Assembly (NCBI GenBank): GCA_041661405.1
Contig: JBAZUL010000010.1
Span: 1-63,866 of the forward strand
Origin: Patescibacteria group bacterium
Lineage (GTDB): Bacteria; Patescibacteriota; Patescibacteriia; Patescibacteriales; JBAZCA01
Reading direction: 5' to 3'
Length of the DNA: 63,866 nt
The position numbers and the translations under genes were made by a program. Numbering within the stretch: the first letter of the stretch is position 1; each line of letters opens with the position of its first letter. Of the stretch, positions 62,803 to 63,866 are shown piece after piece. The notes below the pieces were generated by a model, which made no database searches, was not told the DNA's origin, and was given only the letters and a program-made list of their open reading frames with translations.

Positions 62803-63866
62803 TTACTTCGCGCACCTGAACCCGACTCCGGCCATAACTTCGCTCGGCGCGCGGCTTAAATCCAGGCTGTAAATCCCGTTTTCTCCCCGGACATACCCGC
62901 GGACATTGGCGGTTGACTCGCCGGTAATAATTTTTCCAATGCCGTTATCCGCGTCGCTCATATAGTAAGGCGGCCTGATCGCGCCGAGCGATCTGTAAGA
63001 GGAAACTTCCGAGTATTCGGACCAATCATAGCTCCCGACTAACGGCAAATCGCTCTGATTAGCAATGCCTTTAGTCCACTGCCCCGCTCCGGATAACCCA
63101 TAAATGACATTGCCATTAGTAAGCGCGTACTCCTCACCCTCTCCGGACTCGGGGAGGGTCGTCCCGTCTCTCTCAAGAGGCGGGACGGGGTGGGGTAATT
63201 GCAGACCTTCTTTTACCGGGTCAGCGTCATTTCCGGCTGACCGGGTAATATTTTCCGCTATGGTCATCCATTCGGCATCGCTCATCAAATGATAGCCTTT
63301 TCCAAGGCTCTGGCACCTCAAATCCGCTTCACCCTGCGATATATTAGTCCATAAGCTCCCCTCGCCCATGACGCTAGGAATGGGAGAGGGGTCGGGGGTG
63401 AGGGCCGCCATGCGAGCCATAACGCAGAATCCCGGGAGCGTTCCGTATTCAGCCGAACCCGGAACCCATTCAAATCCTTCTTCGCAATAGCCTTCGTAAG
63501 CTCCGGCCACGACTTTGCCTTCCACTCCGAGGTCGCCCATGGTGTCGTCAACTTTCGCGTCTAGTCTGCTGTTGCAGGCCCCGGAGGAGCAAACCAGTAT
63601 CCGGCCGTCCACTTCCATTTCCCCGACAATTACGACTTTGCCGGCGGATGAAACATTCATGATGGAAACATCCCCGGATTTAAAGTCAGCAATATCGCCC
63701 GATCCGGACTGATTAACAACAAAGGCGGTTTGAGTAGTAGTACTCGCGGTCTCAATATCCATAACGGCGACAGAAGTTGAGGCTTCGGCAATGTCGGTGA
63801 TAATACTCACTATCGGGCCGCCTTGTCCGCCGACAGTGATGTTAGCCGGAGCGGTTGAGGAGGCGG
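62803..63866 (-). CDS. C-terminal part of a large surface protein ending in an FGE-sulfatase/C-type-lectin-like domain; partial at the right edge
   Basis: Frame stays open to the window end; VNQSGSGDIADF, FCVM, WTNISQ..A...C.SLG.GYHL....EWMTIA, LTNGNVIY, terminal GFRCAK. Confidence 0.75.
   Translation of the reverse strand, partial: ASSTAPANITVGGQGGPIVSIITDIAEASTSVAVMDIETASTTTQTAFVVNQSGSGDIADFKSGDVSIMNVSSAGKVVIVGEMEVDGRILVCSSGACNSRLDAKVDDTMGDLGVEGKVVAGAYEGYCEEGFEWVPGSAEYGTLPGFCVMARMAALTPDPSPIPSVMGEGSLWTNISQGEADLRCQSLGKGYHLMSDAEWMTIAENITRSAGNDADPVKEGLQLPHPVPPLERDGTTLPESGEGEEYALTNGNVIYGLSGAGQWTKGIANQSDLPLVGSYDWSEYSEVSSYRSLGAIRPPYYMSDADNGIGKIITGESTANVRGYVRGENGIYSLDLSRAPSEVMAGVGFRCAK
63131..63196 (-). 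repeat. REP-like element with a nested hairpin, in frame within the CDS
   Basis: Minus strand ACCCCACCCC[GTCCCGCCTCTTGAGAGAGACGGGAC]GACCCTCCCCGAGTCCGGAGAGGG; encodes PHPVPPLERDGTTLPESGEG. Confidence 0.75.
63356..63404 (-). repeat. REP-like element, in frame within the CDS
   Basis: Minus strand CCCTCACCCCCGACCCCTCTCCCA-TTCCTAGCGTCA-TGGGCGAGGGGAG; encodes LTPDPSPIPSVMGEG. Confidence 0.8.

Follow-up and report, generated by a model that had tools for sequence, protein, structure and literature searches.

The window analysed here is the whole of contig C10 (63,866 bases), one of the 18 contigs of a 98% complete, 1.17-Mb genome of an ultra-small bacterium from groundwater metagenomes, whose proteins have homologues labelled Patescibacteria or Parcubacteria. 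This genome is referred to as G000, relatives of the same order as G022, G045 and G048, and contigs by labels such as C10. The end of the window carries the 3′ part of a gene for a giant surface protein, and two short GC-rich elements, E1 and E2, lie in frame in its coding sequence, their sequences exactly as quoted in an earlier note on this DNA (Table 1). The minus-strand open reading frame (ORF), which contains ...ALTPDPSPIPSVMGEGSLW... and ...QLPHPVPPLERDGTTLPESGEGEEYAL..., extends past the contig end at 63864, and the 5′ part of the gene lies beyond the contig. A paralogue with 66% identity was found at the end of C5 (C5:79288-80372), and the N-terminal parts are absent from both contigs. 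The first approximately 127 nt are identical between the gene (window 63740-63866) and the paralogue, and both contigs probably end there because this segment of the two giant genes is repeated identically. In relatives, the homologues form the C-terminus of open frames that reach 5660 codons, and some of them carry a Peptidase_S74 (tail-fibre chaperone) domain upstream. Comparison of the gene with its nearest orthologue gave a dN/dS of 0.13 at a dS of 0.66, indicating that the gene is functional and under purifying selection.

Table 1. Features at the end of the window (positions are those of the 63,866-base contig C10)
Feature	Position	Strand	Details
C-terminal 353 codons and stop of giant surface-protein gene	62803..63864	-	From the ORF list; stop at 62803-62805
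C-type-lectin/FGE-sulfatase-like domain (predicted)	62806..63582	-	259 aa, ends GFRCAK; AlphaFold2, Foldseek and Pfam matches of homologues
E2, composite TM-type element	63131..63200	-	Loop L2; peptide PHPVPPLERDGTTLPESGEGEE; composite copy at C4:86610-86671
Nested CGTC-tagged REP hairpin, CGTCCCGTCTCT-CTCA-AGAGGCGGGACG	63160..63187	.	Inside E2
E1, BoxC/PIT/TM-type triplex-motif repeat	63355..63404	-	Loop L1; peptide LTPDPSPIPSVMGEGS; nhmmer E 2.4e-12

A search of the query protein against Pfam gave no match, and the fold was assigned from homologues, an AlphaFold2 model and Foldseek instead. Weak matches to FGE-sulfatase (PF03781) were found in 10 of 39 homologues. The AlphaFold2 model of the last 259 residues (pLDDT 73.7, pTM 0.75) had as its best PDB matches TaqVP and Mtd, the variable proteins of diversity-generating retroelements (DGRs), followed by formylglycine-generating enzyme (FGE) and C-type lectins. 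On this model the host domain has a lectin-like (C-type-lectin/FGE) fold, in agreement with the earlier note, and as the tip domain of a large surface protein it likely has a binding role. Most of the domain is modelled with confidence, and pLDDT falls below 50 in the N-terminal 24 residues and within both element-encoded peptides. The E1 peptide is Pro/Gly-rich (LTPDPSP...GEGS) and occupies domain residues 61-76, with pLDDT below 50 at 63-74; the E2 peptide, also Pro/Gly-rich (PHPVPP...GEGEE), occupies residues 130-151, with pLDDT below 50 at 134-138 and 143-148. Neither has secondary structure in the model, which supports the placement of the inserts in surface loops, L1 and L2, that the earlier note had predicted.

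On its sense strand (63404..63355), E1 reads CCCTCACCCCCGACCCCTCTCCC-ATTCCTAGCGTCAT-GGGCGAGGGGAGC. Read on the plus strand, it consists of a Y block (CCCCTCGCCC, 63358-63367), a loop (ATGACGCTAGGAAT, 63368-63381), an R block (GGGAGAGGGG, 63382-63391), a TCG linker and a third block (GGGGTGAGGG, 63395-63404). E2 reads ACCCCACCCC-[GTCCCGCCTCTTGAGAGAGACGGGAC]-GACCCTCCCC-GAGTCC-GGAGAGGGT on the sense strand (63200..63131), and on the plus strand shows a Y block (ACCCTCTCC, 63136-63144), a loop (63145-63150), an R block (GGGGAGGGT, 63151-63159), the nested hairpin and a third block (GGGGTGGGG, 63187-63195). The blocks of E2 are thus those of E1, with a 26-28-nt hairpin, CGTCCCGY...RCGGGACG, added between the pairing block and the outer block. 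The folding of E2 is strong compared with shuffled sequences (z -4.26), whereas the hairpin of E1, although it forms, has only weak folding here (z -1.1); strong folding was seen for an intergenic copy (z -4.3).

When the DNA of the gene was compared with its own genome, the only matches besides itself and the one paralogue were at E1 and E2. E1 matched C9:46743-46796, C1:54712-54778 and C6:45353-45402 (E 3e-8 to 9e-8), and E2 matched C4:86634-86671 and C4:75370-75397 (E 0.007). With a profile built from copies in relatives, five strong matches were obtained in the genome (E 2e-12 to 9e-7), of which the four other than E1 lie at C6:45353, in frame in the middle of the enolase gene, and in intergenic DNA at C9:46799, C1:54779 and C11:10252. 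The prediction of related intergenic copies of both motifs is therefore borne out, with the E1 type at C1, C9 and C11 and the E2 composite at C4. The strict pattern CACCCC-N1-5-CCCTYYCCC-N6-36-GGGNGAGGG was present in 17 of 61 genomes of the order, and the backwards-read control in none of the 61. The motif had been called widespread, and a scan of one genome per species located it at no fewer than 120 loci in at least eight phyla, including Acidobacteriota, Planctomycetota, Chloroflexota, Pseudomonadota, Cyanobacteria, Verrucomicrobiota and Armatimonadota. The core stem hardly varies. In the intragenic copies its middle pair is as a rule a mismatch (T-C or C-A) and was in no case seen as C-G, a trait shared with E. 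coli that looks conserved in the family. Inspection by eye revealed neither a target-site duplication nor a consensus in the flanks, apart from a frequent GGGGAGCT end. A search of Rfam gave a chance-level match only (Antizyme_FSE, E 0.76). These results confirm that both elements are more than chance and are real members of repeat families, in frame. The approximately 40-nt three-block motif was also often seen in inverted doublets 30-120 nt apart (L052-L131), uniform across phyla.

The motif corresponds to a published one. Holder et al. (2015; PMC4666352) described TM_ECO, a G/C-rich intrastrand triplex motif (TM) formerly known as BoxC or PIT, with the form CCCTC(T/G)CCC - loop - GGGAGAGGG - two/three bases - GGGGTGAGGG. 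It occurs in 23 copies in Escherichia coli K-12, 'always located intergenically', and more than 260 genomes contain it. A stable triplex is formed in vitro, not demonstrably in vivo; the motif is associated with local sequence instability, and no link to mobile elements was found (PMC4666352). E1 and E2 both show its three blocks, Y (CCCTCKCCC), R (GGGAGAGGG) and the third block (GGGGTGAGGG), and further likenesses are the frequent mid-stem mismatch, which in E1 is that of the E. coli 'mm' types, the multi-copy state, the presence in many phyla, the occasional inverted doublets and the absence of a linked transposase. The differences are that the E. coli copies are always intergenic with hairpin loops of 3-5 nt, whereas those found here are partly intragenic and in frame with loops of 10-14 nt, that both E1 and E2 fall outside the short-loop ITxF definition (1-6 nt), the E2 linker being approximately 28 nt because of the nested hairpin, and that one copy here has a REP hairpin in its linker; triplex formation by the present elements is putative. 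The label 'REP-type' (repetitive extragenic palindromic, REP) used in the earlier note accordingly falls short for the motif, which is the published BoxC/PIT/TM triplex repeat (PMC4666352).

The nested hairpin belongs to a family of its own. Hairpins of the form GTCCCGY..RCGGGAC were found at 12 loci in the genome, compared with 0.4 expected from shuffles; they are mostly intergenic and carry the CGTC tag, and the copy nested in E2 is the only one of the 12 in the middle of an ORF. The TM part of the elements has neither a GTAG nor a CGTC tag, the CGTC being found on the nested hairpin and on most of the 12 family members; the tag is used here as defined in PMC3733652. The intergenic element at C4:86610-86671 has a composite architecture identical to that of E2, suggesting that the composite was copied as a unit. 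A second copy of the CGTC-tagged hairpin family (GTCCCGTAGCCGAAGGCATGCGGGAC) was noted in the window at 36628-36653, apparently outside long ORFs, and several loci of the family are terminator-like, with flanking A and T runs.

Misassembly was considered as a source of the elements and is unlikely, because the identical sequence was assembled independently from two groundwater runs and E1 is present at the orthologous site in an independent metagenome contig.

The nearest orthologue (P0152/L039, on a contig of JGI metagenome 3300027373) has 82% identity to the gene. It carries E1 at the same place with one base changed and lacks E2, and at the position of E2 it has a 33-nt GACAGAC tandem repeat. 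Of the two runs holding C10, one also contained a contig of the E2-free type, with a lower depth. In the same-genus genomes and the C5 paralogue neither element was found and the loops are unrelated in sequence, with lengths of 18-26 aa at L1 and 6-25 aa at L2, compared with 21 and 22 aa here. E2 replaces a shorter loop relative to the paralogue and nearest relatives, with a net gain of 11 aa. We infer that E1 predates the split from the nearest known relative and that E2 is younger. Among 69 family members, L1 (5-32 aa) and L2 (0-44 aa) are the most length-variable parts of the family, and many of these loops hold peptides typical of TM-type or other repeat families. When both loops were left out of the tree, TM-type elements had to be gained or lost at least four times in L1 and at least four times in L2, and every sequence with an element was paired, on a well-supported branch, with a sister lacking it. 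The L1 and L2 copies of G022 and G048 are similar to one another and to other copies of the same genome, which points to acquisition within each lineage. The peptides had been expected to be clean indels relative to close homologues; this expectation failed in the present gene, and a clean indel, of 48 nt at L2, was found only in a relative, between the G022 protein and a sister sequence with flanks of approximately 85% identity. A third loop of the nearest orthologue contains, opposite window 63023/63024, a further palindrome of 21 nt, CCTGCCTAGCCGGCAGGCAGG (LPSRQAG), which is a clean indel and keeps the frame; at C4:75400-75430 of G000, a CTGCC..GGCAG hairpin of similar kind adjoins a CGTC hairpin.

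These comparisons also bear on the explanation that the two peptides are native Pro/Gly-rich loops that evolved in place and merely resemble repeats. Such loops are common, and neither element is a clean indel in this gene. However, E1 agrees with intergenic copies at 22 of 23 nt and then at 14 of 14 nt, spacing and mismatch being the same, E2 has an intergenic counterpart of like composite architecture, each genome has its own element variants, and the 48-nt indel in the relative is clean. Convergence is thus very improbable.

Copies of the pattern in G000, G022, G045 and G048 were placed in reading frames, and 20 of the approximately 33 examined lie well inside long ORFs of identifiable genes (16 genes). 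The host genes encode enolase (in G000 and G022, at the same site), UvrA, a valyl-tRNA-synthetase-like protein, QueA, MurC, a UvrD-like helicase, three glycosyltransferases, RarA, Ddl, a P-type ATPase and lectin-tipped giant proteins, one of which, in G022, holds four copies. In G000, two of the five copies lie inside genes and keep the frame, and so do most of those in G022 and G045. The sense strand is the C-rich strand in 14 of the 16 genes (P = 0.004), and 12 of these 14 genes read the left arm as (L/P)TPxPSP (P = 8e-5 against an expectation of one in three). Since other frames are also stop-free in the conserved arms, the frame bias needs a peptide-level or mechanistic explanation. In the enolase gene (C6:44770-46137), an in-frame TM-type repeat (..IPLMSGSSAATPLTPDPFPAHASRARGAEIK..) stands right after the conserved FMxIP. 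Alignment of this loop from 28 genomes showed a basal state of 4-5 residues and differing repeat-derived inserts in at least 10 of the genomes, of the TM type in either orientation and in other frames too, indicating that the repeated use of one permissive loop is a general habit of these repeats. The phenomenon is general and not specific to adhesins. Two further in-frame TM copies were seen in the giant protein of G022 (L025, C44:6436-6700), apparently within the Peptidase_S74 domain and upstream of the lectin domain.

The reading that we favour, with a probability of about three in four, is that two small non-autonomous GC-rich repeats became part of the coding sequence of the giant surface protein, in hypervariable, unstructured loops of a domain with a C-type-lectin fold. 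Established for it are family membership, in-frame position, location in loops of the model, presence or absence among close relatives, and purifying selection on the gene. Copies of the elements would land, or be pasted, at many places in the genome, and those surviving would be the ones that keep the frame, give a hydrophilic and flexible peptide and fall in a permissive loop; a filter of this kind would explain the repeated use of the same loops across lineages, both here and in enolase. The inserts would be translated as loop peptides. The copying would probably have been done by a Y1/HUH transposase resembling the REP-associated tyrosine transposases (RAYTs), since lost by the genus, and the inserts would be neutral or nearly so.

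Several results weigh against this reading. Neither element is a clean indel in this gene, and E1 replaces an unrelated loop of similar length, unlike a simple insertion. The strand and frame bias of the intragenic copies is strong. E1 has no synonymous change relative to the nearest orthologue over 12 synonymous sites, compared with a pS of 0.44 elsewhere in the gene (P approximately 0.001), which is unexpected in a neutral passenger. No transposase is tied to the element: a search for RAYT (Y1_Tnp, PF01797) gave no match in G000 or its genus, and the one RAYT-like HUH gene inspected, in G022 (L044, C34:1-2061; ..YGYVIMPNHLHCLI..), has a different kind of palindrome, CCAGAGTCTCCTGAAAGGGACTCTGG, on either side.

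Y1_Tnp genes were present in 16 of the 17 pattern-bearing genomes of the order, G000 being the exception, compared with 25 of 44 without the pattern (P = 0.006). The gene upstream of the RAYT-like gene on C34 of G022 carries a TM copy in frame (..SPPAPLLIRRGEQ..), and at six further RAYT loci of relatives no TM element stood beside the gene. The copies in G000 are probably relics. The REP/REPIN-RAYT systems (TnpA-REP of E. coli and the REPINs of Pseudomonas) are comparable in their GC-rich hairpin repeats and in the near-constant presence of Y1_Tnp in repeat-holding genomes of the order; they differ in that G000 has no RAYT and no cognate RAYT-repeat pair has been established.

E1 is the best conserved part of the gene. 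It differs from the nearest orthologue at 1 of 50 nt, compared with 15.5% in the flanking coding sequence (P = 0.002), and every other 50-nt window of the gene has at least two differences. A constraint on the DNA or RNA may lie behind this conservation, as may homogenisation or, with a single comparison, chance. Under the first of these, the element would act as a nucleic acid, with a DNA or mRNA hairpin or triplex modulating recombination, replication, transcription or translational pausing and the peptide a by-product. The synonymous sites of E1 are frozen while the orthologues differ at 44% of those elsewhere, nucleotide-level conservation of the motif extends over different families of the order and different phyla, the intragenic copies are strand-biased, and the E. 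coli version forms a triplex in vitro (PMC4666352). We nevertheless regard this role as unlikely: the E1 hairpin is weak (z -1.1), the hairpin loops of 10-14 nt and the E2 linker of approximately 28 nt exceed the published 1-6-nt triplex loops, no stable triplex was detected in vivo in E. coli by the authors of the motif paper, who refer to earlier work in which promoter or terminator activity was not found (PMC4666352), and a single orthologue pair is a small sample.

Adaptive domestication, in which the repeats would be kept for remodelling two ligand-facing loops and would offer a DGR-independent route to adhesin diversification, has similarly little claim on our belief. The two loops have been used repeatedly and independently, with at least four changes each, and are the most length-variable parts of the family; E1 is unusually conserved; the fold is that of DGR receptor-binding proteins; and TM repeats are tied to local sequence instability in E. 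coli (PMC4666352). However, the same elements occur in enolase, Ddl, MurC, UvrA and other genes in which no benefit from diversification would be expected, the enolase loop shows the same recurrence, the TM type is present in only approximately 6 of the 69 family members, and the binding function of the domain and its loops is putative. The conservation of E1 and the recurrence in the loops are compatible with domestication, and equally with a simple permissive-loop filter.

Variation of the domain by a DGR was rejected. The fold matches that of DGR variable proteins, but no RVT_1 match for a reverse transcriptase was found in the 98%-complete genome, and nothing in it resembles a template, no part of the gene being present a second time in such a form, implying that a DGR is not at work here; moreover, the C-terminal segment, the usual site of the DGR variable region, is conserved. 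We consider a DGR the least credible of the explanations. The likeness to Mtd and TaqVP is in the fold, the C-terminal position of the domain, the ...GFRCA(K/R) ending and the likely tip-binding role, whereas the variation here is in two internal loops, by indels and repeat insertion, and not by C-terminal adenine mutagenesis.

A more far-reaching proposal, which at present is doubtful, is that the BoxC/TM repeats and allied palindromes serve as loop cassettes in the Candidate Phyla Radiation (CPR), being pasted repeatedly into or over the same permissive loops, on a preferred strand and in a preferred frame, and then held constant at the nucleotide level. If this were true, a mechanism that reuses sites, such as a Y1/HUH enzyme or structure-induced repair, would keep rewriting the surface loops of lectin-tipped giant proteins and those of core enzymes, and diversity in binding loops would arise independently of DGRs.

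Rickettsia palindromic elements (RPE), reportedly described by Ogata et al. in 2000 as in-frame repeats in Rickettsia genes, provide a parallel that the earlier note had drawn and that stands, the behaviour being alike. Intragenic GTAG/CGTC REPs, often in uvrA and other repair genes, are reported from several phyla by Di Nocera et al. (2013; PMC3733652). The present elements resemble both groups in being short palindromic repeats that keep the frame of genes still functional, uvrA and tRNA synthetase genes among them, in adding predicted peptides of approximately 15-30 aa, in the CGTC tag of the hairpin nested in E2, and in the predicted location of the inserts in loops of the structure model. 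They differ in sequence family and in host phylum (CPR/Patescibacteria). The motif is clearly of the TM type, so that the likeness is behavioural and membership of RPE is not claimed. In addition, the TM type carries, in place of a 4-nt tag, a 5′ block that is long, conserved and unpaired, and recurrent use of the same loop and a strong frame bias are not known to be part of those descriptions. A literature search found no description of in-frame palindromic inserts of this kind in CPR. What appears to be new is the family (the triplex-type BoxC, reported from E. coli as strictly intergenic), the phylum of the host, the bias in strand and frame, and the repeated use of the same two loops of a tip domain with a lectin fold.

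The BoxC/TM repeat is among the most widely spread short DNA motifs of bacteria, and in this order of ultra-small CPR it is largely intragenic, with one strand and frame and with recurrent loops, which makes the order a natural data set for its movement and constraint. The case shows how protein loops of streamlined genomes gain new sequence. Inserts of this kind break Pfam matches, fragment assemblies and inflate the apparent divergence of CPR proteins, and should be expected by annotators and structure predictors. Read-through of 63131-63404, if it occurs, would give peptides such as LTPDPSPIPSVMGEGSLWTNISQGEADLR.

Repeat families richer in AT than E1 and E2 were also seen in frame, in L024, L026, L029 and L034 (G022 and G045) and on C5. 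HENTKTQKHENTKTRKH occurs in a ValRS-like protein, in MurC and in the enolase tail, and further examples are YELRITNKDY in a glycosyltransferase and TNNNESRI in L2 of the paralogue on C5.

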